Source: Bacteroidales bacterium
Lineage (GTDB): Bacteria; Bacteroidota; Bacteroidia; Bacteroidales; VadinHA17
NCBI GenBank assembly: GCA_016936435.1
Contig: JAFGXX010000075.1
Location: 6,469 to 70,468 of the forward strand
Direction of reading: 5' to 3'
DNA: 64,000 nt
The translations under genes were made by a program, and so were the position numbers. Position 1 is the first letter of the stretch; every line of letters starts with the position of its first letter. Below, piece after piece: positions 1,850-40,836 of this stretch. The notes below the pieces were generated by a model. It did no database searches. It was not told the DNA's origin and worked only from the letters and a program-made list of their open reading frames with translations.

Positions 1850-3042
1850 TAACTGCGGTGAACAGTGATTTCTACATAGAAGTAAACGTACAGCAGCGAA
1901 ATCATGATGCTGAAAAGATCTGCGGCGACGTTTTTCTCAACAGGTACATCAGGGAAGAGGACCGTGTGATAGCTGTGCTTTCCGACGGCATGGGACACGG
2001 TGTCAAAGCAAATATACTGGCAACTCTCACCTCGACCATGGCTCTGAATTTTACCCGCGAGCACAAGGAAATAGACCGGATCGCAGAGATAATAATGAAA
2101 ACGCTTCCTGAATGTGCCGAGAGGAAAATTGCCTATGCAACTTTTACCATTGTCGACATTGAAAGCAGGGGCAGAACCAACATCCTGGAATATGATAATC
2201 CCCCTACTATAATCCTTCGCGGTAACCGTGAATTTGATCCTTCCTGGAAAACGGTAACTCTTGAGAGCGGAAGACATGCAGGCAGGATCCTGAAAACATG
2301 CACCTTTATGCCTGAAAAAGAAGACAGGATAATCTTCTGTTCCGATGGCGTCGCTCAGAGCGGCATGGGCAGCGAAGCCTTCCCTTTCGGATGGGAAAGA
2401 GAGAATATTGTTGCCTATGCTTCCAGACTGGTTAGCGGCGAACCTTCAATATCGGCATCGATGCTTGCAGGCAAGATAGTAACCATGGCACACAAAAACG
2501 ACGGCTATAAAGCCAGGGACGACATAAGCTGTGCCATTATCTACTTCCGCGAACCACGAAAATTACTTCTCTGCACCGGCCCTCCCTATGAAAAAGAGAA
2601 AGATCTTATTCTTGCCCGGAAGGTTAAGGAATACGAGGGAAAGGTAATTCTCTGCGGCGGCACAACAGCCGACATAATCGCACGCGAGCTTAACAGGACA
2701 ATTGTAGATGAACTTATTTTCGAAGATCCCGAACTTCCTCCCGAAAGCTTTCTCGAAGGTATAGACCTTGTAACCGAAGGCATCCTTACTCTTCAGAAAG
2801 TCAACGAGATACTAAAGACCTACAACAACAGCGTGAGGCTGGGAAAGGGCCCAGCCGATAAAATCGTCAGGATGCTGATGGACAGCGACGAGATCCATTT
2901 TGTGATCGGAACCAGGATTAATATTGCCCACCAGGATCCCAACCTTCCCGTGGAACTGGAGATAAGACGGACTGTTGTGAAACGTATCGCCCGGCTTCTC
3001 GAGGATAAATGGCTTAAAAATATCACCTTCGAATACATTTAA
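1846..3042 (+). CDS. SpoIIE/PP2C-family protein phosphatase with an unrecognised C-terminal domain
   Basis: 398 aa. SpoIIE-type pattern: CGDVF...VLSDGMGHGVKANILA...FCSDGV...DDISCAII. The GTG start overlaps the upstream stop (GTGA, nt 1846-1849), which suggests translational coupling. The last ~160 aa (from LLLCTGPPYEKEKD) were not recognised. Confidence 0.8.
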   Translation: MITAVNSDFYIEVNVQQRNHDAEKICGDVFLNRYIREEDRVIAVLSDGMGHGVKANILATLTSTMALNFTREHKEIDRIAEIIMKTLPECAERKIAYATFTIVDIESRGRTNILEYDNPPTIILRGNREFDPSWKTVTLESGRHAGRILKTCTFMPEKEDRIIFCSDGVAQSGMGSEAFPFGWERENIVAYASRLVSGEPSISASMLAGKIVTMAHKNDGYKARDDISCAIIYFREPRKLLLCTGPPYEKEKDLILARKVKEYEGKVILCGGTTADIIARELNRTIVDELIFEDPELPPESFLEGIDLVTEGILTLQKVNEILKTYNNSVRLGKGPADKIVRMLMDSDEIHFVIGTRINIAHQDPNLPVELEIRRTVVKRIARLLEDKWLKNITFEYI

Positions 3043-6756: not shown

Positions 6757-9700
6757 TTAAATTCTTATCCCTATTATTGTAACATCGTCAGTCTGATCAT
6801 TGGTTCCCATCCACCTTTCAAGCTCATTCTGAAGTATATTTCTCTGTTCAACCATAGGCCGGTAGTAAATCTCCCTTAAAAGTTTTTTCAGGTTTGCCGA
6901 CTTGTATTTTCCGCCGTCAGGTCCGCCGAACTGAGAGTTGAATCCATCAGAATAAATATAGAGAGTGTCGCCCCGGTTCACACTTATAACATTGTTGGTA
7001 AATGGTCGTTCGTCGCCATAATGGATTCCGATAGGCATCCTGTCGGCCCTGAACTCCCTCATTTCCCCCTGCTGGAAGATCACCAGCGGGTTAAAAGCTC
7101 CTGAATACTGAAGCAGCCTTCTGTTTTTATTCAGGATACAGAATGCCACATCCATACCGTCGCTGGCCTCCCCTTCCCTTCCGGTCTGATGTAAAGCCCT
7201 TATAACTTTCTCTCTGAGCAGGTTAAGTACGGTGTTAGCCTGCAGGTCGTGATTGTTCGCCACTATTTCGTTCAGTGTTGAAATTCCCATGGTGCTCATG
7301 AAAGCACCCGGCACGCCATGACCGGTACAGTCGGCAACGGTAAAGAAGATCGACTTATCGTCTTCACTTATCCAGTAAAAGTCGCCGCTCACGATATCGC
7401 GTGGCCGGAAGAAAATGAAATAATCGGAGAAAGAATCCCTGAAATGCTCATCTACATGAAGCATTGCCTTCTGTATCCTTCCGGCATACTCAATACTTGA
7501 TGTTATCTCCCCTTTCTGGGCTTCTATCTGGGCTGTCCTCTCCCGTACCCTTTGTTCAAGAAGACGTGTTTTTGCATGCAGCTGTCTCTCCCTGAACCTT
7601 ATGATAAACACAATAAACGACAGAGCCATTATCCCTGTAATAATGTAAAAAACTGCCGTTCGCGTAAGAGGTGCCTTGATGGTAAACCTCAGCGACCTTC
7701 GTTCACTGATGTTACCCCAGAGGTCGCGGGCCCGTACCTGCAGGATATAATCACCCGGCCGGCCTATAGGAACCTCATAATGCGTTCGAGCGGACCATTC
7801 CGACCAGTCGGGCATCACCTTATAAATGAAATACTGATATTTTGTCGTTCCGTTCTTCAGGTACCCGGGAGCAACGATGTCGAAATAAATAATATTGTCT
7901 CCCCTGTCGAACTGAACATTCTGAAGATCAAAATTTGTACCTCTGGCGTTGCTTATATTTTTTATGAGAACATTTATTTCAGGACTTGTTCCCGTCACCA
8001 TTTTTCTTCTGATACCATAAAGCCTGTTGCTCCCGTCGATGACCCATATATGATTATCTTCGACCATGATCGAAACAATATCATCAAAGATCTTCAGAAG
8101 GGAGAGTTCCAGTGATCTTATATTATGCCGGGGGTCGAGAGATATCCACTCATCGCCTTTCCATATAAGGTTTACATTTGACACCGGGATATAAAATGCA
8201 CTCTCCCTGAAGGCATTACCGCCACCCTGCCTGCATGGATTAAAGCTGTCAGCCTCATAATCAAAGAAATAAATTTCCGATTCGGTGAACAGGAATAGAG
8301 TATCGTTAATAAGGTCGAGAGTAAATCTTTCAGGATAATCATTTTCGATATTATATTTTTTATAATTTCCCAAAGCTTCTTCATTACCAGCCTCCGACCT
8401 GTATACGGTATTGTCGCTGCCTATCCATAGAGAACCCTTGTTGTCGGCAGTGACTGAATATACCGGATGCAAAAAACCGTCATCGGGGAATTCTGTTCTC
8501 CATCCCCTGTTTTTCTGGACTATGGAAAAATAACCATCACTGGTTGAAATGTAATATCTGTCGCCGTAGGCATTCCAGCTAATATTGTTTATGTATCTGT
8601 TGGGGGTAAGCAGGTAAGCCTTATGCTGTCTGATGACATAAAGGCCTTTATTGGTTGCAGCCAGCATGCCTCCCGGTATTGAAACCAGCTGGCGGCATTT
8701 TTCATTAAGACCTTCCACTTTCCGGTAAACGTGATTGATCTCCCGTAGCCGGCTGATCGTTCTTGTAGTAAAACTCGCTGATGGTGAAGCAGATATATTT
8801 TGACGCGACTCCTGTTCCTTTTCGTCAGCATTGGCGATTTCCGTTCCCGTTTCATCTTCATCCTCAGCACGCTTTCCGAATATTCTTGTTATTATATTTC
8901 TTCTGGTATCCTGTTTTCCCATATCGGGATCAGGGGCAATGAGGTCCCGTTCTTCCTCCTGCTTCAGCTCAAACTGCCGGTCCTCTCGCTGCGAAGCATC
9001 ATCCCTTACCAGCACTTCTATCCTGTCGTAGCTTCTGACCTCCGACAGGTAGAAAACTCCCTCGCTTGTCGCCACATACAATTCATTGTCGTACATCATG
9101 GCTGAAGTAAGATTACCCAGCAGGCCGGGATAGATGCAATAACTGCGAACGGGAATGCTGAGGTCGGCACGTGTCAGTCCGTACTGGTGCGAAAGCCACA
9201 GACCTCCGCTGTTGTCAGATCCTATAGCCAGTATCTCATCGTCGGGTAAACCATTCTGGTTGTTTATTGTAAATAGTACCTCGCCTGTTTTCTTTCTGAC
9301 AATGATAACACCTCCCTCGAGGGTGGAGAAAGCATAAGCTGTATCGGCAAGGCTGATTCCCTCCGAAAGAATATTTTCTTTCAGATAACCGTCGTCTTTA
9401 AGCGGATAGTCATAATATTTCATCCCGTCGAAAAGCGAGAGGGTGCCGTTTCCCAGGCCTAAAAGCATGAGATTTGAATTATAGGGAAGTGAAAAAAGGA
9501 TGCTGGTATTCTCGGTAAGGTAACCTGTCACTATAGGGAAGAGGGTGTCACTCTCGATACGGTGCAGACCTTTACCCGAAACATTAACGTAGGTGTTTTC
9601 AGGCATTACAATGAGTCCGGTAAAAGAATTGCCTTCCCTGGAATCGAGACGCAGCCGGGTGGTATCTGCTTCAGTATCATATTCTATTATTGTCTTTTCA

Positions 9701-10104
9701 CTATAGAACCACACAGAAGAAGTACCGAAAATTATTTTTGTTATCACACCTGTTCCGGCAGTGTTGTCTGAAAGCGAGTTATAACGCCAGGATTCTGATT
9801 CACTACTTGTTATATACCCGAAATGGTTATCTCCGCCAAGATATATCCTTTTATCGGAAGGGTTTTTCTGAAGCGAATATGGTACTACGGGCATCCTGAT
9901 ATTAATCCATTCCTCGCCATCGAAAGTCAGTATTCCTTTCCGGTTGGCAAAGAGCATGATCTGGTTTTCATCCTGACAAAGTGCCCAGTTCTGATTCTCA
10001 ATGTTCCTGCTCTGCGAGAAATCGGTAAGAATTGGAACTCCCACCTGTGCCGTCAGGGCAGGAGCAGCCAGGAGCACCGATATTGCAAGGATAATCCTTT
10101 TCAT
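6757..10104 (-). CDS. Periplasmic beta-propeller (two-component-regulator propeller / Y_Y_Y type) sensor fused through one TM helix to a SpoIIE/PP2C phosphatase
   Basis: 1115 aa. It has a signal peptide and repeated propeller-like blades. The Y_Y_Y-like region is YQYFIYKVMPDWSEW. The TM segment is VFYIITGIMALSFIVFII, followed by a coiled coil. The C-terminal SpoIIE pattern is SGDFYW...ADCTGHGVPGAFMS...SDGF...DDVTIIGIRI. Confidence 0.8.
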   Translation of the reverse strand: MKRIILAISVLLAAPALTAQVGVPILTDFSQSRNIENQNWALCQDENQIMLFANRKGILTFDGEEWINIRMPVVPYSLQKNPSDKRIYLGGDNHFGYITSSESESWRYNSLSDNTAGTGVITKIIFGTSSVWFYSEKTIIEYDTEADTTRLRLDSREGNSFTGLIVMPENTYVNVSGKGLHRIESDTLFPIVTGYLTENTSILFSLPYNSNLMLLGLGNGTLSLFDGMKYYDYPLKDDGYLKENILSEGISLADTAYAFSTLEGGVIIVRKKTGEVLFTINNQNGLPDDEILAIGSDNSGGLWLSHQYGLTRADLSIPVRSYCIYPGLLGNLTSAMMYDNELYVATSEGVFYLSEVRSYDRIEVLVRDDASQREDRQFELKQEEERDLIAPDPDMGKQDTRRNIITRIFGKRAEDEDETGTEIANADEKEQESRQNISASPSASFTTRTISRLREINHVYRKVEGLNEKCRQLVSIPGGMLAATNKGLYVIRQHKAYLLTPNRYINNISWNAYGDRYYISTSDGYFSIVQKNRGWRTEFPDDGFLHPVYSVTADNKGSLWIGSDNTVYRSEAGNEEALGNYKKYNIENDYPERFTLDLINDTLFLFTESEIYFFDYEADSFNPCRQGGGNAFRESAFYIPVSNVNLIWKGDEWISLDPRHNIRSLELSLLKIFDDIVSIMVEDNHIWVIDGSNRLYGIRRKMVTGTSPEINVLIKNISNARGTNFDLQNVQFDRGDNIIYFDIVAPGYLKNGTTKYQYFIYKVMPDWSEWSARTHYEVPIGRPGDYILQVRARDLWGNISERRSLRFTIKAPLTRTAVFYIITGIMALSFIVFIIRFRERQLHAKTRLLEQRVRERTAQIEAQKGEITSSIEYAGRIQKAMLHVDEHFRDSFSDYFIFFRPRDIVSGDFYWISEDDKSIFFTVADCTGHGVPGAFMSTMGISTLNEIVANNHDLQANTVLNLLREKVIRALHQTGREGEASDGMDVAFCILNKNRRLLQYSGAFNPLVIFQQGEMREFRADRMPIGIHYGDERPFTNNVISVNRGDTLYIYSDGFNSQFGGPDGGKYKSANLKKLLREIYYRPMVEQRNILQNELERWMGTNDQTDDVTIIGIRI

Positions 10105-27534: not shown

Positions 27535-28257
27535 TCAAAAGATATGAGATCTCTGTGTCGTCACTCTTTCAGGTTTCCCTATCTTCTTTTCATACATCGA
27601 TACAATGATCTCAGCTGTCTGAGAAATGCTGAAGGGCCTCCGGTTTATTGTTGCATCAAAAAGATAGTCGATATTTATTGATTTCTTTTCGAGAAAGGTA
27701 GTTATCAGATTGTGCCTTTTTTCGTCAGTGTCAACAACATATTCCTCGGCTTTCTCGATATCCATCTCCTTCTTTTTCATTACATTCTCCACCCTCCAGT
27801 AAAATGGAGCTATCAGTCTTATATGCAACGCATTGATAATATCACGCGCTATTGAGACTCCTCCCCTTCCGACCAGCACCACATGACCGTCCTTGCAGAT
27901 TGATAGTACCACATCCCTGATAGCCTTTTTAACTCTGAGGTCGCTGACAAATCCACCTGAAAATGCCATGATCATCTCCGACATATTTGAAAGCTCAATT
28001 CCTTTATAGAAATTTTCAACCCTTTCAGTTTCGGTATTCAGTTCTTTGGCAATGTCGTAAATAATGTCTTTGTCAACCCATTTCCACTTACTTGAGCCTG
28101 TCCTGGCATTAAGATTCTCCACCACACTTTCGGCAACCTGACGGGCATCGCAACCTGTCAGTCTTGAAATGGTAATAACGGGCCCTTCTTCAGCACCTGT
28201 TTTCTGAAGACTTATTTCCCTGTTACGGTGATCAAAGTAGTCAAAGAATTTTTCCAT
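27535..28257 (-). CDS. Cytidylate-kinase-like family protein
   Basis: 240 aa. The degenerate P-loop region ITISRLTGCDARQVAE and the overall layout resemble the cytidylate-kinase-like family. Confidence 0.5.
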   Translation of the reverse strand: MEKFFDYFDHRNREISLQKTGAEEGPVITISRLTGCDARQVAESVVENLNARTGSSKWKWVDKDIIYDIAKELNTETERVENFYKGIELSNMSEMIMAFSGGFVSDLRVKKAIRDVVLSICKDGHVVLVGRGGVSIARDIINALHIRLIAPFYWRVENVMKKKEMDIEKAEEYVVDTDEKRHNLITTFLEKKSINIDYLFDATINRRPFSISQTAEIIVSMYEKKIGKPERVTTQRSHIF

Positions 28258-30002: not shown

Positions 30003-32366
30003 CTACTCATGCTCCGTCCTCATAATGATCTCATTCTGCAGATCCTCGCCCAGGTCGTTGAAATAATCGCTGTATCCTGCAACCCTCACAATAAGATCCC
30101 TGTATTGCTCGGGATGTTTCTGTGCATCTCTCAGGGTGTCGGCACTTACAACGTTGAACTGAACATGGTGGCCTTCGAGGGCAAAGTAGCTCCTGATAAG
30201 AGCCGTAAGGCAACTATAGCTCTCCTCGTCACTAAAGAAAGATGGCGCGAATTTCTGGTTCAACAGTGTGCCTCCTGTCTTAAGGTGGTCGATTTTTGCT
30301 GCCGATCGTATTACTGCGGTAGGCCCCTGACTATCAGCGCCCTGGCTTGGTGATATTCCTTCAGACAAAGGTTTGAAGGCATTCCTCCCGTCTGCCGTGG
30401 CACCGGTAACACTTCCGAAATATACATGCGATGTCGTCGGCAGCATATTTATCCGGTGGACACCTCCCCTGGAATCGGGCCGGCCGTTGACGGCATCATA
30501 GTAGATCTCAAAAACAGCAACCGCATGCTGATCGGCATAATCATCGTCGTTGCCATATTTTGGGGTATCATATATCAGGTCATGCTGTATTTGTTCGTAA
30601 CCTTTGAAGTCGGCATCAACAGCTTCCAGCAGCATTTTCCATGTATATCTTTTAGTGTCATAGATATTATAACGCAGCGATGTGAGAATGTCAGTAATGC
30701 TTCCCAGTCCGACACCCTGAATATATGTTGTGTTATAACGGGCACCTCCGTTATTGTAATCCCTGCCGTTTGCAATACAATCCTCTACCAGAAGAGAAAG
30801 GAAGGGAGCCGGAAGAAAGTGAGCAAAAGTTTTCATGATCACGTTATTACCCCTTATCTTAATGTCGATAAAGTAGGTGACCTGGGCTCGGAATGCCTGC
30901 ATAAGGTCTTCAAAGGTTGGGTAATCGGCTGCATATCCCGTCTTTAGCCCCACCTGTTTGCCTGTACGGGAATCGAATCCGTTATTAAGAGTGAGTTCCA
31001 GTACCTTTGTCAGATTGAAATAGCCTGTAAGCCAGTATGCTTCAGTGCCGAAGGCGCCTGTCTCCACACATCCCGATGCACCACCGTTACGTGCATCTAC
31101 AATATCCTTACCCTGACGAAGCAGTTCCTGGACGATTGCTTCCGTGTTAAAGCACGAAGGTTGTCCGAATCCTGTACTAATAATTCCGAGAGCTTTATGA
31201 ACGAAGAGATCCGGATTCTTTCGGCTGATCTGAACCATTGAACTGGGCTGCAGTATCCTCATCTCCTTAATTACGTCAAGTAATATATATGTCATTTCGT
31301 TGACAGCATCTGTTCCGTCGGGCTTAACGCCACCCAGATTGATCAGACAGAAATCGGTGTATGTTCCGCTTTCGGATGCTGTAACACCCATTTTGGGAGG
31401 AGCCGGATGATTGTTGAACTTAACCCAGAAGCAACCCAGAAGATCATGCATGCTTTCGTCGGAAAGAGTTCCCAGTTCTTTTTCCCTGCGGTATACTCTC
31501 AGTAAATGCTGATCCAGGCGGCCGGGGTTGAATGAATCCCATGGATTCAACTCGGTGATCACTCCCATATGAATAAACCAGTAATGCTGCAGCATCTCAT
31601 GAAATGTTTCAGGAGCATGAGCCGGCACTCTCCGGCAGATATCCGACATCATAACAAGCTCCTGCCTGCGTTCCTCATCCTTCTCAATTGAGGCCAGTCG
31701 CATCAGCTCTTCCGAATAACGACGGGCATACATGATTATGGCATCGCATGAAATATCCATGGCAAGAAGCTCCTGCTGCTTTTCAAATGCCTCCGTATCA
31801 TTGAACCAGTCGAGATCCTTCAGTGCTGCAGCTATCTCCTCCTTTACCTGGACAAATCCGGTATTGAACATCTTATATCCAAGCACCGTATGTCCCGGCG
31901 CCCTCTGCTCCTGGAACTCGGTAAAGATTCCTGCTCCGTATGCACTGAGCCATTCAGGTGTCATAAGCTTCATTATCCTGTCGCGGTTGCTCTTTCCTTT
32001 CCAGAAAGGGATGATCTCTTTTTCGTAGATATCCCTGACCTCCGGGTCTACCCTGAAAGATACCTTTTCCCTTGAATCGAGAATATCCAGGTCCTCAACA
32101 GAATGCAGACTGATTTCAGGGTATGTTGGCGTTTTCTTAGGTGCCGGACCTCTCTCTCCGACTATAAGTTCTCCTTCACCCACAAATAGTCTTTTATTCC
32201 TGAGGATATATTCAAATGCCCTGGCCCTCAGAACAGGAGCCGACAGGCCTTCTGCCTCAGCGCTTTTATAAAATTGTGTTACAAGCAGGGCTCTCTCCGG
32301 GGAGAGCTTTTCAACTGCATTCAGACTCTGTTCACGCAGTTTCCTGACTCTGGATGATAATATCAT
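30003..32366 (-). CDS. Glycyl radical enzyme, dehydratase/eliminase class (HypD- / glycerol-dehydratase-like size and motifs)
   Basis: 787 aa. C-terminal glycyl-radical motif RVAGYSDYF (Gly at about residue 764). The catalytic loop GGASGCVETG has one Cys plus Glu, not the CC of pyruvate formate-lyase. The PFL-fold N-terminal pattern is present. Confidence 0.85.
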   Translation of the reverse strand: MILSSRVRKLREQSLNAVEKLSPERALLVTQFYKSAEAEGLSAPVLRARAFEYILRNKRLFVGEGELIVGERGPAPKKTPTYPEISLHSVEDLDILDSREKVSFRVDPEVRDIYEKEIIPFWKGKSNRDRIMKLMTPEWLSAYGAGIFTEFQEQRAPGHTVLGYKMFNTGFVQVKEEIAAALKDLDWFNDTEAFEKQQELLAMDISCDAIIMYARRYSEELMRLASIEKDEERRQELVMMSDICRRVPAHAPETFHEMLQHYWFIHMGVITELNPWDSFNPGRLDQHLLRVYRREKELGTLSDESMHDLLGCFWVKFNNHPAPPKMGVTASESGTYTDFCLINLGGVKPDGTDAVNEMTYILLDVIKEMRILQPSSMVQISRKNPDLFVHKALGIISTGFGQPSCFNTEAIVQELLRQGKDIVDARNGGASGCVETGAFGTEAYWLTGYFNLTKVLELTLNNGFDSRTGKQVGLKTGYAADYPTFEDLMQAFRAQVTYFIDIKIRGNNVIMKTFAHFLPAPFLSLLVEDCIANGRDYNNGGARYNTTYIQGVGLGSITDILTSLRYNIYDTKRYTWKMLLEAVDADFKGYEQIQHDLIYDTPKYGNDDDYADQHAVAVFEIYYDAVNGRPDSRGGVHRINMLPTTSHVYFGSVTGATADGRNAFKPLSEGISPSQGADSQGPTAVIRSAAKIDHLKTGGTLLNQKFAPSFFSDEESYSCLTALIRSYFALEGHHVQFNVVSADTLRDAQKHPEQYRDLIVRVAGYSDYFNDLGEDLQNEIIMRTEHE

Positions 32367-32423
32367 GGTAAATACTTTTTAACTGTTCGTTAATATTAGT
32401 CCTTTCGACGCTCTTTTACATTC

Positions 32424-33224
32424 TCATCCTCCTGTCTTAACCTGGATCCCGGTCTCTGCAAAAAAATCCATCAGTTCCTTCATCCTTGCCGGTGAAGGTG
32501 GTTCTATACCATTCATCCGGTACTGTATGCCGAATTTGCTATATTTCGAAGACCCTGTTTTATGATAAGGCAGAAGGTTCAGCTTCCTGATCTTCTCCGG
32601 ACCATATTCCGAGAGAAAAGACCTCATTTTTTCAAGATGTTCAATGTCATCATTTAATCCGGGTATCACGGGAAACCTGATCATAACATCTTTCCCTGAA
32701 TCAAAAATTATCTTCAGATTATTGATTATTAATTCATTAGACACTCCGGTATAAAGGAGGTGTTTCCCGGCATCGAGGTGTTTCAGGTCGTAAAGGAACA
32801 GATCGGTATGGGGAATAATTGACAGAAGGTCTTTTGTATCGACATAACCCGATGTGTCGACAGCTGTATGATATCCTTTCCCCCTGCACTTCCGGAGGCT
32901 TTCAAGCAGAAAGGCAGGCTGAAACAAAGGCTCGCCTCCCGAGAATGTGACTCCCCCTGCTGATTCTTCGATGAATATCCTTTCCCTTTCAAGAATTTCT
33001 AAGATCTGCCCGGAAGAATAATACTTACCAGCCTGTTCCTTAACCTCAAATTCCCTGTCACCGACCCTGTCAATCCTTGTCGCTGACTCAGGTTCTTGAA
33101 GTATCCCTTCAGGATTATGACACCACCAGCACGAGAGAGGACATCCCTTCATGAACACCGTAACCCTTATACCGGGACCGTCGTGTACGGTGTAGCGTTT
33201 TATGCTGAAAATCAGGCCTTGCAT
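32424..33224 (-). CDS. Glycyl-radical-enzyme activating protein (radical SAM), short form without ferredoxin-like insert
   Basis: 266 aa. GPGIRVTVFMKGCPLSCWWCHNPE provides the CX3CX2C motif, and GGEP is present. There are only 4 Cys in the whole protein. It lies 57 nt upstream of the GRE gene on the same strand. Confidence 0.85.
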   Translation of the reverse strand: MQGLIFSIKRYTVHDGPGIRVTVFMKGCPLSCWWCHNPEGILQEPESATRIDRVGDREFEVKEQAGKYYSSGQILEILERERIFIEESAGGVTFSGGEPLFQPAFLLESLRKCRGKGYHTAVDTSGYVDTKDLLSIIPHTDLFLYDLKHLDAGKHLLYTGVSNELIINNLKIIFDSGKDVMIRFPVIPGLNDDIEHLEKMRSFLSEYGPEKIRKLNLLPYHKTGSSKYSKFGIQYRMNGIEPPSPARMKELMDFFAETGIQVKTGG

Positions 33225-33228
33225 TGGG

Positions 33229-33288
33229 AGGTTTAAGGGTTTATGGTTTGTGGTTTAAGGTTTAAGAGTTTAAAGTTTAAGGGTTAGG
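33229..33288. repeat. Degenerate tandem GTTTAAG/GGTTTAAG tract (about 8 units), C-free on the plus strand; it forms the 5' leader of the activase gene
   Basis: The sequence reads GGTTTAAG GGTTTAT GGTTTGT GGTTTAAG GTTTAAGA GTTTAAA GTTTAAGG GTTAGG. It starts 4 nt from the activase ATG (33224). Confidence 0.8.
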
Positions 33289-33498
33289 TGTAATATATCA
33301 GATCACCCAAATGACTGTCATTAAAATGTTCTTTGAAATGGAAGTATAACTGTTTACAGGGAATAGAACATAAGGCAGCAGTAGAGTCTGCGGCCCAGAC
33401 GTCTCATCATAAAGCCGAACTTTAATCTGAATGCATTCATAATAAGCTGCAAGTTATATACTTTTTTCTATATTTATGATCCTGTTTTCGGCAAATAA

Positions 33499-35886
33499 AT
33501 GCAACGAACATATTTACAGAAAAAATCCGAAGCGAACATTCTGACCGCTTTTTTCCTTCTTTTTATAACTTCTTCTCTTTTAAATGCACAACAGCTGGTG
33601 CGCCATACAATAAGCGGCTTCGTGAGGGAAGCAGGCAGCGGCGAACTTCTGACAGGTGTAAATGTTTATCTCTCTGATCACCGTACAGGCACTGTTACAA
33701 ACAATTACGGTTTTTTCTCCCTTACCCTTCCGGAAACGGATTCTCTTGTGGTTACTGCCTCGTATGTAGGCTTCAAACCGGAAACAAGAAAGATCGCCCT
33801 TCGCAGGGACACAGAACTGAACTTCGATCTGGAATCGAACGCGATGCTCGATGAAGTCAAAATAACAGCAGAAAAAACGGAGAAGCAGAGTGAATCGGCC
33901 AGGATGAGCACCATAAGTGTCCCGGTAGCACAGGTTAAGAATGTACCGTCGCTGCTCGGGGAAAAGGACGTTATGAAAGTGCTGCAGCTGATGCCGGGTG
34001 TACAGAAAGGTTCTGAGGGTAGCAGCGGGCTATATGTAAGAGGCGGCGGCCCGGATCAGAACCTGATCATCCTCGACGATGCCATCGTCTATAATGCCTC
34101 CCATCTTTTTGGTTTTTTCTCTCTCTTCAACGGGGATGCCCTTAAAAGCATCGAACTTACAAAGGGAGGTTTCCCTGCACGCTACGGAGGGCGTCTTTCA
34201 TCAGTTCTGGAGATGACCATGAAAGAGGGTAACAAGGAAAAATGGCATGGAGAAGGAGGCATAGGGCTTATCTCCTCAAGACTGACGCTTGAGGGTCCGC
34301 TGGTAAAAAATAAGTCCTCTATTCTGGTATCAGGACGGCGGACCTACGCCGATGTGATATTATCACCTATACTCAAAGCAACCGAAGAAACTGACGCAGG
34401 TTATTATTTCTACGACCTCAATGCAAAAGTGAACTACGATTTCGGAAGAAAGAACAAGCTGTACCTGAGCGGATATTTCGGGAAAGACAAATTTCACGCA
34501 AAATACAATGAAGAGTATAATGAAAAGGCAGGACTTAACTGGGGAAACGCCACAGCTACCTTACGGTGGAACCATCTGTTCAGTAGCAAGCTCTTCGCAA
34601 ACGCTTCAGCAGTATTCAGCGATTACAGGTTCGGGATCACTTATGAATTTAAGGACGAAGCTGCAGATGACGACTATTTTGCTGAATATTATTCCGGCAT
34701 CAGGGATCTTTCCCTGAAATTTGACCTGGATTACCTGCCATCACCTTCTCACTGGATAAAAGCCGGAGCTATAACCATCCAGCACAGATTCACACCATAT
34801 GTATTCATTGAGATAGATAAGCCTGTTAACATAAATAAAAAGGAGAAGGAACAATCAGACGGTCTTGAATCGGGCATTTATATCGAGGATACATGGAAGC
34901 CTGATGAAAATCTGAAAATCAACGGAGGTGTTCGCTTCAGTCATTTCCTTGCCAACAGGGAACAATATCACTATTTTGAACCCAGGATCTCAGCAGGATG
35001 GAAGCTCCCTTCCGATTTTGCCCTGAAAGCTTCCTATTCATCGATGAGTCAGTACATCCACATGATCTCCAATACCGGGATAAGCCTTCCGACCGACCTG
35101 TGGGTGCCCACCACCGACAGGGTTAAGCCCCAGCAATCGCGTCAGGTTGCAATAGGGGCAGTAAAGGACATAACCTCGCCCGGGATGTCATTCTCAATTG
35201 AAGGCTATTATAAGAAAATGGACAATGTAATAGGGTACAAGGAAGGAGCAACCTTCATACAGATAGAGGAGGCGGCAACAGGTGAAGGTATAAGCTGGGA
35301 AGATAATGTTACCTCGGGCCAGGGATGGTCATACGGACTTGAGTTCCTCATTCAGAAGAAAGAGGGCCGCTTTAATGGCTGGGCAGGGTATACGCTTTCA
35401 TGGACACAAATGCAGTTCGATTCCCTGAATTCCGGAAAGAAATTCTATGCCCGGTATGACAGGCGGCATGATATTTCACTCGTAGGGACATACAGAATAA
35501 ATAATCACATAACACTCTCCGGGACATGGGTATACGGTACGGGAAATGCCGTCACCCTGCCCGTGTCAGCATACCCGGCACCTGACTATGCACAAATTTA
35601 CATAAGTAAACAGCAAAGAAGTTATAATGTGAAGGAATACGGTGAAAGGAACAATTACCGGATGGCCCCCTACCACAGGCTCGACCTGGGAATTCAGTTC
35701 CACAAAGAAAAGAAATGGGGGGAACGTGTGTGGGAAATATCAGTCTATAATGTATATAACCGCAAGAATCCGTTTTTCTACAATATTGAATATTTTTCGT
35801 CGGGATATGGTCAGTCCTATACCAGGCTAAAACAGTTCAGTCTTTTTCCGATTATTCCATCATTTTCCTATTCTTTCAAATTCTGA
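33499..35886 (+). CDS. TonB-dependent receptor with N-terminal carboxypeptidase-regulatory-like domain
   Basis: 795 aa. Signal peptide, then CarbopepD_reg-like ISGFVREAGSGELLTGVNVYL, then a plug (LLGEKDVMKVLQLMPGVQ). The beta-barrel ends with a terminal aromatic residue (SYSFKF). Confidence 0.85.
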   Translation: MQRTYLQKKSEANILTAFFLLFITSSLLNAQQLVRHTISGFVREAGSGELLTGVNVYLSDHRTGTVTNNYGFFSLTLPETDSLVVTASYVGFKPETRKIALRRDTELNFDLESNAMLDEVKITAEKTEKQSESARMSTISVPVAQVKNVPSLLGEKDVMKVLQLMPGVQKGSEGSSGLYVRGGGPDQNLIILDDAIVYNASHLFGFFSLFNGDALKSIELTKGGFPARYGGRLSSVLEMTMKEGNKEKWHGEGGIGLISSRLTLEGPLVKNKSSILVSGRRTYADVILSPILKATEETDAGYYFYDLNAKVNYDFGRKNKLYLSGYFGKDKFHAKYNEEYNEKAGLNWGNATATLRWNHLFSSKLFANASAVFSDYRFGITYEFKDEAADDDYFAEYYSGIRDLSLKFDLDYLPSPSHWIKAGAITIQHRFTPYVFIEIDKPVNINKKEKEQSDGLESGIYIEDTWKPDENLKINGGVRFSHFLANREQYHYFEPRISAGWKLPSDFALKASYSSMSQYIHMISNTGISLPTDLWVPTTDRVKPQQSRQVAIGAVKDITSPGMSFSIEGYYKKMDNVIGYKEGATFIQIEEAATGEGISWEDNVTSGQGWSYGLEFLIQKKEGRFNGWAGYTLSWTQMQFDSLNSGKKFYARYDRRHDISLVGTYRINNHITLSGTWVYGTGNAVTLPVSAYPAPDYAQIYISKQQRSYNVKEYGERNNYRMAPYHRLDLGIQFHKEKKWGERVWEISVYNVYNRKNPFFYNIEYFSSGYGQSYTRLKQFSLFPIIPSFSYSFKF

Positions 35887-37007: not shown

Positions 37008-39077
37008 GTGCAAAGAAGATTTTTTATGTTATTGCTGGCAGCAGCCTTTTCTTTTCAACTTGCTGCACGACAGGGTCCTCAGAAAGCAATCAGGGGTGTT
37101 CTTGACCTGACCGGTCTCGACCCGGAAAAAGAGTTCACAATGCGTCCTAACGGCGAATGGGAATTTTACTGGAAAAAACTGCTTCGTCCGCATGACTTTG
37201 ACCAGGTAAAAATAAGCCCTGACCTTTACGCTGATGTACCTGCATACTGGACCGAATACCCTGAGGAAATTGTCGGTGATGGCAGGTTTGGTTATGCAAG
37301 CTACAGACTAACAATACTGCTGCCACCAGGGTTCAGAAAAACGATGGGGTTCGACATGCCGGTATTTGATTCATCATACGACATATACATCAACGGCAAA
37401 TATTACTCATGGAACGGGGTTCCCGGAAAAACGGAAGAGGATTCAGAACCTGAATACAGAAGAGTTTTTTTCAGCCTTGAACCTGACTCGGACACTCTTA
37501 CAGTGCTAATAAATGTTTCGAACTATACTCACAGAAGAGGAGGTTTCTGGCTTCCTCTCAAGATAGGCACATTTGATAAAACAAGAAAACAGCTGGCAGG
37601 GAGCTGGGCCCGCGACTGGTCATCAATGAGTCTTCTGCTTGGATTCTCACTGTTCTTCTTCCTCTTCTTCGTACTCTACCGGAAAGAAAGAGTTATGGCT
37701 TACTTCAGCATGGCCGCAACCGGACTCGCGATCCGGCCCCTTTTTACATCGCATTTTTTGATTTCCGGCTTCACGGACATGAGCTGGGACTGGATAATAC
37801 GTTTTGAGTACCTCGGTCTGTACATCGTCGTTACAGGATGGCTCTGGTTCATTACCGTACAGTATCCCTCACGATATTTCAGGATATTTGCACATATTAT
37901 AAGCTGGTTCTTCATAACGGCATTTATCTTCACATTTTTCCTGCCGGTAAAGATCTTCAGCTACACAACCATGCTTATCTATCCTTCCCTGATTATCCTT
38001 ATGATTTATTCGGTAGTTAAGAGCATAATGGGAATGATCTCAGGGAACAGGATCGATATCGTCTATTTCTTTGCTTTTATCATGCTTCTTGGCGGAGGTT
38101 TTCACGATATAATGGTATCTCTCGGGAAAACAGGAACATCTTCAGAATACATCATGACCTATTTTGTTGTGATCTTTGTCATGGTGCAGGCCATTCTTCT
38201 TTTGTACAACTGGGTCAGATCATACCATGAAAAGGACAAACTACGGGCTGAACTGGAGTTCATGAACCGTAACCTTGAATCGATGATCAGTGAAAGGACA
38301 CGGGAACTGAAGGAACGAAATGAAGAAATTGAAAAACAGAGTATAAAAATATCCACGCAGAACAGGCAGCTTTCAGAAACGATCCAGATGAAGAATAAAA
38401 TCTTCTCCCTCATTGCCCATGACCTGAGGAGCCCGGTGGTCAACATTTTATACATGCTTAACCTTCTGAAAGAGAAAGAATACAAGGAGAAATACGACAC
38501 CTTTGCCAATACCAGCATTGAATATGCACAGATGGTGATATCGCTCCTCGAGAATATGCTTGTGTGGGGAAGAGGCCAGGAAGACAAAATAAAATACGCT
38601 CCGCAGATCCAGAACCTGGCCGACGTAATCCTCACAAACCTGAGCATCTTCAAGGAGACGGCAGATAAGAAGGAGATCTCAATGAACTTTACCCAGGTTG
38701 GAAGTTCAACAGCATATTTCGATAAAGACCTTCTGGATATAATAATAAGAAATCTACTTTCAAATGCAGTAAAATATACGCCACGTGGCGGGCGGATAAG
38801 CATTCTCCTGAAAGACAGGAGCATGAATGAGGGAGGAGTAATGATAAAAGTATGTGACAACGGTGTCGGGATACCGGCCGTAAAACAGAAGTATCTCTTT
38901 ACCGCAACGGAGATGACAAGCACACCGGGTACGGATAATGAAAAAGGAACCGGACTGGGTCTGAAGCTCTGCCATGAACTCGTAATGCTGAATAAAGGGA
39001 CAATTAGTGTTGAGAGTACTGAAGGTGCAGGGACATGTTTCACAATAATCCTTCCGGAAGGAGTCTCTGAAGGCTGA
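37008..39077 (+). CDS. 7TMR-DISM sensor histidine kinase
   Basis: 689 aa. Extracellular DISMED2-like N-domain, 7 TM helices, a coiled coil, a HisKA H-box (FSLIAHDLRSP) and HATPase_c motifs (NAVKYTP, DNGVGIP, GTGLGL). No response regulator gene is adjacent. Confidence 0.85.
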   Translation: MQRRFFMLLLAAAFSFQLAARQGPQKAIRGVLDLTGLDPEKEFTMRPNGEWEFYWKKLLRPHDFDQVKISPDLYADVPAYWTEYPEEIVGDGRFGYASYRLTILLPPGFRKTMGFDMPVFDSSYDIYINGKYYSWNGVPGKTEEDSEPEYRRVFFSLEPDSDTLTVLINVSNYTHRRGGFWLPLKIGTFDKTRKQLAGSWARDWSSMSLLLGFSLFFFLFFVLYRKERVMAYFSMAATGLAIRPLFTSHFLISGFTDMSWDWIIRFEYLGLYIVVTGWLWFITVQYPSRYFRIFAHIISWFFITAFIFTFFLPVKIFSYTTMLIYPSLIILMIYSVVKSIMGMISGNRIDIVYFFAFIMLLGGGFHDIMVSLGKTGTSSEYIMTYFVVIFVMVQAILLLYNWVRSYHEKDKLRAELEFMNRNLESMISERTRELKERNEEIEKQSIKISTQNRQLSETIQMKNKIFSLIAHDLRSPVVNILYMLNLLKEKEYKEKYDTFANTSIEYAQMVISLLENMLVWGRGQEDKIKYAPQIQNLADVILTNLSIFKETADKKEISMNFTQVGSSTAYFDKDLLDIIIRNLLSNAVKYTPRGGRISILLKDRSMNEGGVMIKVCDNGVGIPAVKQKYLFTATEMTSTPGTDNEKGTGLGLKLCHELVMLNKGTISVESTEGAGTCFTIILPEGVSEG

Positions 39078-39088
39078 TCCGGCAGGCT

Positions 39089-39760
39089 TCAGTTTCCTGT
39101 GAGCTCTGATAGCCCCTGCCTGTCAGTAATGGAAACCGATTTCCCTTTTGCAGCAATAAGACCTTCTTCCTCCATTTCCCTGAGAGCCCTGGATACGGAA
39201 GGCCTCGTTACCCCAAAGAGATCACCAATAGATGACTGTGTAAGTCCAAGCCTGACGGAGGTCCCCGATTCACCTGCCTGCTGGAGGATGTAATGAGCAA
39301 GCTTGCCTTTTATGGTTTTAAAACTCAGGAACCTGATCTTATCAGAAAGAAATTGTGAGCGGTTGGATATCATATCCAGGAAATTTACCAGCACTCTGCT
39401 GTTACCCTTCAGTAACTGGAGAAATACCGTTTTTTCGATGAAAAGGATCTCTGTTTCCACAATGGCAATGACATTAACCGGAAGAATATTCTTTCTGCCG
39501 AAAAGGAAAGCTGCAGCAACAGCTCCCGGAGCCTCTACTTCTTCTATTTTGATTACCCGGCCCGAATAAGCAGTCATTTCTCCTTTAACACCGCCCTCTG
39601 TAACTATCATCATCGAAGACACTTTTTCTCCGCTTTGTGCAATCAGGTCACCAGGTCCGTAGCGCCTGATACGAAAGTGTATATTCTTCATAATACCCTC
39701 TATATCTGAGGGTAACAATCCTCTGAACAGAGGAGACTGATCCAGTTTATAGAAATCCAT
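39089..39760 (-). CDS. Crp/Fnr-family transcriptional regulator
   Basis: I prefer the start at MDFYKLDQSPLFRGL (nt 39760). cNMP-binding-like domain and C-terminal HTH (SIGDLFGVTRPSVSRALREMEEEGLI). There is no N-terminal FNR-type Cys cluster. Confidence 0.8.
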   Translation of the reverse strand: MDFYKLDQSPLFRGLLPSDIEGIMKNIHFRIRRYGPGDLIAQSGEKVSSMMIVTEGGVKGEMTAYSGRVIKIEEVEAPGAVAAAFLFGRKNILPVNVIAIVETEILFIEKTVFLQLLKGNSRVLVNFLDMISNRSQFLSDKIRFLSFKTIKGKLAHYILQQAGESGTSVRLGLTQSSIGDLFGVTRPSVSRALREMEEEGLIAAKGKSVSITDRQGLSELTGN

Positions 39761-39846
39761 TCTCAAAATGTTTAATAAGACCGACAGGCATATATGACCT
39801 TTCAGCCATAATAGCTTCATTGGGTGGTGAAGTTATTTAAATTTCA

Positions 39847-39918: not shown

Positions 39919-40836
39919 ATGCAAAGGGATATCATAAAAATTGATGAGGAGAAATGTAACGGCTGTGGAATATGTGTACCTAATTGTCACGAAGGAGCCC
40001 TTCAGATCATAGACGAAAAAGCACGTCTGATAAGTGAACTGATGTGCGACGGACTGGGAGCCTGCATAGGGCACTGCCCTGAAGGAGCCATAACCGTTGA
40101 AACCCGCGAGGCTGAACGCTATGATGAAATAAAGGTTATGAAACAGATGATCCATAAAGGGAAGAACACAGTAAAAGCTCACCTGAAACATCTCAGCGAT
40201 CATGGGGAAACCACATATCTTAATCAGGCGCTCAGTTTCCTGGAAGAGCATAGTAATACTCTGGATTTCGATGCCGCTGAGCTAATCGCGATAATAAAAA
40301 ACCATTCCGATTCTGAAGGACAAGTAATAAGGCAACAGCACTCACACTCACACTCACACTCACACTCACACTCAGAAGGATGCCCCGGCATGAAAGAGAT
40401 GATAATAGAAAAACCTTATAGCGACGAGACTGACATCCCTGTGGCAGGCAGACCTTCGGAACTACGGCAATGGCCGGTACAGATGCATCTGTTAAACCCG
40501 GCTGCCTCCTATCTGAGAGACTCCGACCTCCTTCTGACGGCTGATTGTGTTGCATATACAATGGGAGATTTTCATTCCCGCTTTCTCAAGGGCAGGAGCC
40601 TTGCAATTGCATGCCCGAAACTCGATCACGGAATTGAAACATACATACAAAAACTCACTGCCATGATCGACACAGCAAAGGTTAACACTGTTACTATCCT
40701 GATGATGGAGGTTCCTTGCTGTGGCGGTCTGCTTCAGATGGTAAGGGCAGCGCAGGCTAATGCCAGCCGCAAAGTACCTGTAAAACAAATCATTGTAGGC
40801 ATCGGAGGTGAGATTCTGAAAGATGAATGGGTTTAG
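39919..40836 (+). CDS. Ferredoxin-like 4Fe-4S protein with Cys-rich C-terminal domain and an internal (His-Ser)6 repeat
   Basis: 305 aa. N-terminus CNGCGICVPNC...CDGLGACIGHCP, which resembles a dicluster ferredoxin. The C-terminal half carries CPGMKE, ADCVAY, IACPKLD and EVPCCGG. HSHSHSHSHSHS sits in the linker. Confidence 0.65.
   Translation: MQRDIIKIDEEKCNGCGICVPNCHEGALQIIDEKARLISELMCDGLGACIGHCPEGAITVETREAERYDEIKVMKQMIHKGKNTVKAHLKHLSDHGETTYLNQALSFLEEHSNTLDFDAAELIAIIKNHSDSEGQVIRQQHSHSHSHSHSHSEGCPGMKEMIIEKPYSDETDIPVAGRPSELRQWPVQMHLLNPAASYLRDSDLLLTADCVAYTMGDFHSRFLKGRSLAIACPKLDHGIETYIQKLTAMIDTAKVNTVTILMMEVPCCGGLLQMVRAAQANASRKVPVKQIIVGIGGEILKDEWV
40339..40374 (+). repeat. (CACTCA)6 in-frame hexanucleotide microsatellite encoding (His-Ser)6
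   Basis: Six perfect tandem CACTCA units, in frame with the CDS starting at 39919. Confidence 0.9.

Follow-up and report, generated by a model that had tools for sequence, protein, structure and literature searches.

A predicted hydroxyproline dehydratase gene (hypD) with a short activase lacking the ferredoxin-like domain and a conserved small open reading frame upstream in a Bacteroidales genome

The stretch of DNA studied here, called the window below, comprises 64,000 nucleotides (nt) of contig JAFGXX010000075.1 from a metagenome-assembled genome (MAG) of a Bacteroidales bacterium. It carries the gene hypD for a glycyl radical enzyme (GRE), preceded by the gene of its radical SAM activase and, further upstream, by a conserved small open reading frame (ORF), as listed in Table 1. 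The two large ORFs are found where a sequence-only reading of this DNA had claimed them, on the minus strand and 57 nt apart, and the gene order from activase to hypD with such tight spacing recurs across phyla. We read the locus as a two-gene operon for hydroxyproline dehydratase (activase, hypD) which is preceded by a short leader ORF, and from the sequence comparisons described below we put the probability of this reading at roughly 0.8.

Table 1. Features of the hypD locus, with positions counted in the window
Feature	Position	Strand	Remarks
hypD, trans-4-hydroxy-L-proline dehydratase (GRE)	30003..32366	-	787 amino acids (aa); Gly loop G764, Cys loop C433-V-E435
Activase-hypD spacer	32367..32423	-	57 nt; same strand, one operon
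hypD activase, radical SAM	32424..33224	-	266 aa; C28-X3-C32-X2-C35; without ferredoxin-like domain
Linker in place of the ferredoxin-like insert (activase residues 36-70)	33015..33119	-	Cys-free, predicted beta-hairpin
Spacer between small ORF and activase	33225..33353	-	129 nt, C-rich/G-poor on the mRNA strand
Eight tandem imperfect heptamers	33229..33286	-	mRNA strand CTTAAAC / TAAACCT; found by Tandem Repeats Finder (TRF)
13-mer CTGATATATTACA	33289..33301	-	also upstream of the activase in Aminicenantes hypD loci
Small ORF upstream of the activase (conserved; 28 aa; MNAFRLKFGFMMRRLGRRLYCCLMFYSL), probably a leader peptide	33354..33440	-	start codon uncertain

By its sequence the GRE of the window, deposited as 'glycyl radical protein', is HypD, an enzyme known from gut and sediment, in a known host group. 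Against the NCBIfam equivalog model of HypD (NF043068) it scores 1214.3 bits, where the cut-off is 1100, with residues 5-786 covering positions 2-782 of the 784 in the profile, and the next specific NCBIfam families reach 515 bits at most. A sequence search of the PDB gives 1008.8 bits for HypD of Clostridioides difficile (6vxc), with which the window GRE shares 54.3% identity over 779 columns, against 511.6 bits for glycerol dehydratase, 463 for propanediol dehydratase and about 434 for CutC. The Pfam domains are PFL-like and Gly_radical, and the signature pointed out in the sequence-only reading is indeed found, RVAGYS from residue 761 (G764) and GCVE from residue 432 (C433, E435). In C. difficile HypD the residues that bind or process hydroxyproline are F152, R156, H160, W277, D278, K326, S334, D339, F340, C434, E436, Y450, T645 and G765 (PMC7077986), and all 14 are identical in the window GRE, each at position n-1. 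Seven of them are essential in the C. difficile enzyme by single-residue substitution, and D278, D339 and S334 are kept in HypD and not in other eliminases (PMC7077986). The substrate, earlier held to be beyond reading, is readable from the sequence of the GRE itself.

The gene neighbourhoods of relatives point in a similar direction. Among 80 hypD loci surveyed from GTDB genomes, the commonest same-strand neighbours of hypD are genes of an Xaa-Pro aminopeptidase (M24 and AMP_N domains; 13 loci) and of dipeptidyl peptidase IV (DPP-IV; 6 loci), which adjoin hypD with short and with long activases alike; genes of the proline racemase family, of oligopeptide transporters and of EamA proteins are rarer neighbours. 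With such neighbours in the relatives and with the HypD equivalog cut-off exceeded, the label 'orphan' given earlier to this GRE cannot be kept. HypD is known in Bacteroides, Parabacteroides and other Bacteroidetes, and its co-localisation with proC is the common organisation in Clostridiales (PMC6219649). An adjacent proC was treated here as a clade feature, and not as a defining one for HypD.

The activase has Cys at positions 28, 32, 35 and 113 only, and its cluster motif CPLSCWWCHNPE is followed by a Cys-free stretch. The earlier description of this protein, with 266 residues, four Cys and none after CHNPE, is confirmed in full by the sequence and by Pfam, which finds Radical_SAM and Fer4_12 and no Fer4 dicluster domain. 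The protein passes TIGR02494 (PFLE_PFLC; 263.8 bits, cut-off 174.35) and stays under the cut-off of the PflA model TIGR02493 (205.6 against 231.75 bits), while its top NCBIfam family is the HypD activase NF043069 (284.4 bits), which is matched in two stretches with the insert positions unmatched. When 47 short and 20 long HypD activases were compared as profiles with hhalign, the probability was 100 and the identity 46%, and the loss of the insert proposed earlier appears as one gapped region of 37 residues, which is exactly the region of both CX2CX2CX3C motifs. Moreover the short and long HypD activases have in common an NPEG-x4-PE flank after the cluster motif that is absent in PflA, and the core of the window activase is 46% identical to the long HypD activases as compared with 35% to PflC and YbiY and 33.5% to PflA. 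Judged from these alignments, the activase is of the HypD type and not of the PflA type, namely an orthologue of the HypD activases of about 300 aa minus some 37 residues.

An AlphaFold (AF2) model made from 43 homologues (59-83% identity) reaches a pLDDT of 93.4 and a pTM of 0.90 and predicts a single-domain partial TIM-barrel radical SAM fold. It superposes on the pyruvate formate-lyase (PFL) activase of E. coli (PFL-AE; 3cb8, 3c8f and 8fo0) with TM-scores of 0.85 when normalised by the query and 0.92-0.93 when normalised by the target, at a root-mean-square deviation of 1.7-2.0 Å. In the alignment of these homologues 71 columns are invariant, including DGPGIR, CX3CX2C and GGEP; C28, C32 and C35 as well as G96-G97-E98, which bind S-adenosylmethionine, are unchanged throughout. 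The linker that takes the place of the insert contains no Cys and is predicted as an ordered hairpin (pLDDT 87-90) with strands at residues 46-54 and 57-65; here all homologues share G55 and G66, and at least 90% of them also E58 and F59. What remains of the architecture would be PFL-activase-like with a short beta-hairpin, and the window activase is read here, from sequence and model, as a probably functional single-cluster HypD activase.

Two other candidates were considered and rejected in this connection. The PDB entry 3CAN, a domain from Bacteroides vulgatus named 'PFL-AE', is 31% identical to the window activase and so represents a different activase. In the window itself, a gene at 39919-40836 (+), 6.7 kb off, encodes 305 aa with a 2x[4Fe-4S] ferredoxin domain at the N terminus and a repeat of histidine and serine, (HS)n; as a compensating ferredoxin it was discarded on account of its having a homologue in only 1 of the 80 related loci, and it is probably unrelated to the activase. 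An activase-type N-terminal CX3CX2C is seen in no other ORF of 100 aa or more in the window, and the motif is matched otherwise only by an ORF antisense to the malic enzyme gene and within it.

The gene just upstream of hypD is that of an activase in 70 of the 80 surveyed loci, or in 70 of the 73 with room for one; among the ten loci without it, seven are at contig ends and three (L039, L073 and L074) are truly without. The paired loci span Bacteroidota, Aminicenantes, Chloroflexota, Asgard archaea and others. Measured from CX3CX2C to GGEP, the short form has 46-62 residues with 0-1 Cys and is found in 49 of the 70 loci, from Bacteroidota, Asgard archaea, Verrucomicrobiota, Ignavibacteria, Denitrovibrio and Thermoplasmatota; the co-occurrence of short activase and this GRE, for which the sequence-only reading asked for a survey of other Bacteroidales, is seen in many phyla. 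The long form, with 91-112 residues and 7-9 Cys, is found in 21 loci from Aminicenantes, Chloroflexota, Bacillota and Pirellulales. Among the best 120 database clusters (59-83% identical) the activase is exactly 266 aa long in 110, and about half of the 150 best representatives in a library at 50% identity are short single-stretch matches. Short activases occur also in cultured Marinilabiliales and in abundant gut-metagenome clusters. As far as sequence comparison tells, HypD of Bacteroidota and of several further phyla normally has the short activase as its partner.

The short form was probably derived from the long form, a direction of change which is given by parsimony only. Neighbour-joining (NJ) trees were computed from the cores of 72 activases, for which PflA, PflC and YbiY of E. 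coli served as outgroups; in 100 bootstraps, monophyly was obtained in 0/100 for the short and the long form each and the outgroup split in 5/100, the window's own Bacteroidales clade being the sole solid one with 99/100. The NJ bootstraps do not separate short from long, so that they agree with a single loss of the insert as well as with several.

A 2026 review states that only the activases of PFL and ribonucleotide reductase (RNR) lack the ferredoxin-like domain, whose structure and function it gives as unknown (PMC13450708), and a 2018 review of metalloenzymes makes the PFL/RNR statement likewise (PMC7771511). The same had been said in the sequence-only reading of the PflA and NrdG types, and it is too narrow, as the activases of GRM5 microcompartments also lack the insertion (Ferlez et al. 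2019; PMC6325248) and as the insert of E. coli PflC has 4 Cys. In E. coli pflC (L081 5259-6137) these four Cys form one cluster motif within a linker of 64 residues. In fact the insert of GRE activases varies stepwise among known proteins, having 8, 6, 4 or 0 Cys. An insert-less activase is less unusual than was claimed earlier, and more so than the literature says. Neither HypD activases without the ferredoxin-like domain nor a leader peptide of hypD were found described in the literature outside subscription-only papers, and the short activases are annotated merely as 'glycyl-radical enzyme activating protein' or 'PFL activating enzyme'. As an architectural variant the short activase is real and widespread; its annotation is generic, and the literature apparently does not discuss it. 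The novelty claimed for it survives in a weakened form, since the short Cys-poor form is the norm of the clade while no paper describing it was found.

The small ORF upstream of the activase, characterised here in silico, is the most novel element of the locus. Homologous ORFs of 23-34 codons precede the activase at a distance of 45-185 nt in 27 related hypD loci from Bacteroidota (28 with the window), and in none of the hypD loci surveyed from other phyla, with short or long activase alike. The peptides have a core G-[KR]-[GR]-L-[YF]-x-C-[WL]-[MI], in which L19 and C22 are invariant. The entropy is highest at the third codon position, with 1.09 against 0.46 and 0.29 at the other two within the close clade; over all loci the values are 1.48 against 0.93 and 0.79. 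Such a concentration of variation means that selection acts on the peptide. The peptide has no Pfam or NCBIfam model; Rfam gives no match at E <= 10 in 33150-33560, and at gathering thresholds one tRNA is the only match in the whole window. Furthermore the ATG of the small ORF is preceded at 21-30 nt by a TAnnTTTG box, the consensus of Bacteroidetes promoters at -7, in 11 of the 28 loci, the window having the variant TAACTTGCA.

The specificity of the association with the operon was also tested without bias, from the side of the motif, when metagenome contigs were scanned with the back-translated nine-residue motif alone (as an IUPAC pattern) and 80 loci were kept. In 74 of these the next 400 nt downstream contain the same-strand start of an activase homologue, after which hypD comes wherever the contig is long enough. 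Among the remaining six, an Xaa-Pro aminopeptidase gene lies downstream in two (L112 and L133) and an EamA transporter gene in one (L132); in L145 the small ORF precedes DPP-IV and then activase and hypD; the context of L116 is unclear, and the contig of L092 ends 126 nt past the small ORF. The locus L133 (metagenome contig JGI24146J20443_1014749) has a short HypD-like fragment (75% identical) 33 nt after the small ORF, then the Xaa-Pro aminopeptidase gene and no activase, and looks like a rearranged operon.

The spacer between small ORF and activase is biased in composition. Across 102 loci it has a C/G ratio of 2.1, while control regions upstream of genes in these loci have 1.13 (p=3e-11 for G, p=3e-16 for C). 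In the window G makes up 7% of the spacer, and a G-free run of 74 nt (33225-33298) abuts the activase start codon. The heptamer repeat within this run has a period of 7, 8.0 copies and 79% matches; its sequence is not conserved in relatives, of which L004, L015 and L017 have different repeats that are similarly poor in G. Terminator-like hairpins with T-runs follow the small ORF in 16 of the 102 loci, where 2.35 would be expected.

The 13-mer CTGATATATTACA occurs once in the window and otherwise in 3 of 202 loci, all of them from Aminicenantes (L043 2472-2484, L048 5039-5051 and L050 5054-5066), each time 40-60 nt before the activase and in the same relative position as in the window; in about 3.4 Mb some 0.05 exact copies of the 13-mer would be expected by chance. 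In Aminicenantes it is part of a CTGATAT..ATATCAG palindrome or direct repeat beside a promoter-like pair TTGACA / TATATT, and related TGATAT repeats, direct or inverted, are found in six Aminicenantes loci. The 13-mer looks like a shared operator or promoter element and may be the operator of some regulator.

Several other explanations have to be weighed against this account of the two genes. A new eliminase subfamily with an unassigned substrate, one of two alternatives that the sequence-only reading had left, might be supposed from the 54% identity to the sole characterised HypD, from the missing proC next to the gene and from the searchable literature, in which we found no assayed HypD of Bacteroidota. 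It is however scarcely credible, given that the curated equivalog cut-off is exceeded with a score twice that of any other GRE family, that 14 of 14 substrate and catalytic residues are kept with the HypD-specific D278, D339 and S334 among them, that prolyl-peptidase genes adjoin hypD in relatives, and that Bacteroidetes HypD without adjacent proC has already been described (PMC6219649). With all these residues present the earlier claim of novelty for the GRE falls, and of the two alternatives it is the HypD-like enzyme with a naturally trimmed activase that stands. As for the origin of this activase, recruitment of a PflA-type protein by non-orthologous replacement, or an ancestral state rather than a deletion derivative, would suit the PflA-like fold and length, the range of linker lengths (40-57 residues) and the PflA-rooted NJ trees, which with 0/100 for the monophyly of either form leave the polarity unproven; it seems nevertheless quite improbable to us when the core identity of 46% to long HypD activases is set against 33.5% to PflA, and when the NPEG-x4-PE flank occurs in both HypD forms and not in PflA, the NCBIfam ranking leads to TIGR02494 and the HypD-activase families, and the insert sits at the same site in PflC and YbiY (seen directly) and in other GRE-activase profiles (seen as two-stretch matches).

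Some points do weigh against the operon as read here. The activase falls below the equivalog cut-off of NF043069 (284.4 against 425 bits), a shortfall that arises because the insert is missing, as the match in two stretches skips the insert positions. The activase of 4-hydroxyphenylacetate decarboxylase (HPAD) still activates its enzyme when the ferredoxin-like domain is removed, and the radical is then shorter-lived (Selvaraj 2014, as summarised in PMC13450708 and PMC7771511), so that a domain-less activase might behave differently. Biochemistry on Bacteroidota HypD or on short activases was not found in the searchable literature, nor was a gene of the pyrroline-5-carboxylate reductase family or any other that consumes pyrroline-5-carboxylate found in the window by the Pfam scan, which covered its 45 ORFs of at least 180 aa minus five antisense ones. 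Moreover our view is of 64 kb of one genome, and a second activase is possible elsewhere. One might conclude from the cut-off, the limited view and the role of the ferredoxin domain in radical persistence in the HPAD system that the short activase is decayed or non-functional and that a full-length activase elsewhere serves HypD. We consider this very improbable. The ORF is intact, the motifs for the radical SAM cluster, for S-adenosylmethionine and for binding of the Gly loop are invariant among the 43 homologues, the length is 266 aa in 110 of 120 clusters, the gene adjoins hypD in 49 short-activase loci of several phyla, and the model is a confident and complete PFL-AE-like one; this is not how a pseudogene would be preserved.

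For the small ORF the weighing is less one-sided. Together with the C-rich, G-poor spacer it may well form a leader that acts in cis on the expression of the operon, which we judge from the sequence pattern to be somewhat better than an even bet. It speaks against such a leader that canonical terminator hairpins are found in only 16 of the 102 loci and in the window not at all, and that no conserved RNA structure was obtained with RNAalifold from 15 close loci (-1.37 kcal/mol, 4 pairs), where the coding part alone aligns. Classical attenuation was rejected, no run of Pro codons or other attenuator signature being present (35 Pro in 2336 residues). The constraint at the protein level, the invariant Cys and the occurrence with short activases only would suit a trans-acting micropeptide, for example one that compensates for the lost ferredoxin domain. 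But the ORF is absent at the short-activase loci outside Bacteroidota, the exceptional loci have it before operons led by Xaa-Pro aminopeptidase, DPP-IV or EamA genes where no activase adjoins, a promoter-like TAnnTTTG box stands just upstream in 11 of 28 loci and the C-rich, G-poor spacer downstream, and one or two Cys are insufficient to bind a cluster; a micropeptide is thus an unlikely explanation.

For the operon as we read it, with hydroxyproline dehydratase and a single-cluster activase, homology suggests the following course of events. The activase would bind one [4Fe-4S] cluster via C28, C32 and C35, cleave S-adenosylmethionine and take a hydrogen from G764 of HypD. The radical would then move from G764 to C433, which would attack trans-4-hydroxy-L-proline, and D277, H159, D338 and E435 would assist the elimination of water to give pyrroline-5-carboxylate, to be handled presumably by enzymes encoded elsewhere in the genome. 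In the short activase the electron would have to enter at the radical SAM cluster itself, in the way that the PFL activase receives it from flavodoxin. A more detailed proposal, which is speculative and rather doubtful as a whole, is that the small ORF, with its 24-29 codons, encodes a nascent-peptide sensor, in which free hydroxyproline or a hydroxyproline peptide would stall the ribosome, Rho loading on the spacer would be blocked, and a Bacteroidota regulon for hydroxyproline and prolyl peptides (activase-hypD, Xaa-Pro aminopeptidase, DPP-IV and EamA) would be switched on, with the ferredoxin-less HypD activases being at the same time fully competent.

The surroundings of the operon are those of an ordinary chromosome, which is what the 64-kb window is. 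One flank holds NfeD/SPFH genes and the other a TonB-dependent receptor with DUF4249, a 7TMR-DISM histidine kinase and a Crp/Fnr regulator; by Pfam, no bacterial microcompartment (BMC) shell, proC or aldehyde dehydrogenase gene is found in the neighbourhood, and the earlier description of the neighbours (SPFH operon, TonB receptor and none of these three gene types) was correct. The rest of the window includes genes for sugar-acid transport, a fucosidase, a peptidase S46, rpoB/rpoC, the ribosomal proteins L1 and L10 and nusG. The NfeD/SPFH, cytidylate-kinase-like and malic enzyme genes were rejected as members of the pathway, as they are syntenic in the close clade only (6-14 loci), which points to synteny at the family level and not to function. 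The cytidylate-kinase-like gene (27535-28257, minus strand; PF13189) is found in 14 of the hypD loci of the closest relatives and directly follows hypD in several of these that are without the NfeD/SPFH pair. The Crp/Fnr regulator (39089-39820, minus strand) and the 7TMR-DISM histidine kinase (37008-39077, plus strand) lie 4-7 kb from the operon; in the closest related loci the regulator has homologues 4 times and the kinase 6 times. Their nearness could be synteny or could reflect anaerobic regulation. Elsewhere in the window a large subunit like that of [FeFe]-hydrogenase (32-1849, plus strand) is translationally coupled to a SpoIIE/PP2C phosphatase (1846-3042, plus strand), an arrangement which resembles sensory hydrogenase modules, and a second SpoIIE-domain protein of 1115 aa is encoded at 6757-10104.

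HypD is among the most abundant GREs of the human gut and has been proposed as a drug target in C. difficile. A natural plus/minus comparison is offered by the HypD activases, orthologues that have or lack the domain and act on HypDs which are 59-80% identical to that of the window; in this comparison radical yield and lifetime, the electron donor and the sensitivity to oxygen or nitric oxide could be compared directly. If the ferredoxin-less activases are fully competent, the auxiliary clusters would be dispensable for an eliminase in vivo. Moreover a single-domain activase of an eliminase could ease the structure determination of an activase-GRE complex; the PFL activase is to our knowledge the only GRE activase with a solved structure so far. 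If the small ORF is regulatory, it would represent a new family of leader peptides in a phylum about whose mechanisms of translation and attenuation little is known, and would give a handle on how gut Bacteroidota sense hydroxyproline derived from collagen. For annotation, the NF043069 cut-off of 425 shuts out the activase of the window with its 284 bits.

Compared with known systems, the small ORF recalls TnaC and SpeFL of E. coli, likewise short ORFs (about 24-34 codons) with which a catabolic operon opens on its 5' side; here too the amino-acid sequence is under constraint, and a spacer rich in C and poor in G comes next, a possible Rho loading site. The small ORF has no sequence similarity to them and differs in the distance from motif to stop, which varies by clade, being 1 residue in most and 4 in that of the window. 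As for the activase, the GRM5 activases give a precedent beyond the PFL and RNR systems for lacking the ferredoxin-like insertion; they belong to a microcompartment GRE system, whereas the window is without BMC genes, and they are likened here by their description. The E. coli activases PflC and YbiY (of PflD and YbiW) are TIGR02494-type like that of the window and have the insert at the same site after CX3CX2C, in linkers of 64-92 residues with 4 (PflC) or 6 (YbiY) Cys, where the window activase has 0. E. coli PflA (3C8F/3CB8/8FO0) shares with the window activase the single-domain radical SAM architecture and the CX3CX2C cluster alone; the window activase differs by a core identity of only about 33%, an extra beta-hairpin of some 20 residues, the NPEG..PE flank and a partner that is an eliminase and not PFL. 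The closest system is that of C. difficile (6VXC/6VXE; Levin 2017, Backman 2020), with the same GRE family, Gly loop, C-V-E loop and 14 residues, an activase gene adjoining hypD and the same activase core family, which is the top NCBIfam match. The HypD of the window is 54% identical to it, has no adjacent proC and is preceded by a conserved ORF for a probable leader, and its activase does without the ferredoxin-like insert of about 37 residues, with two motifs and 8 Cys, that the C. difficile activase carries.

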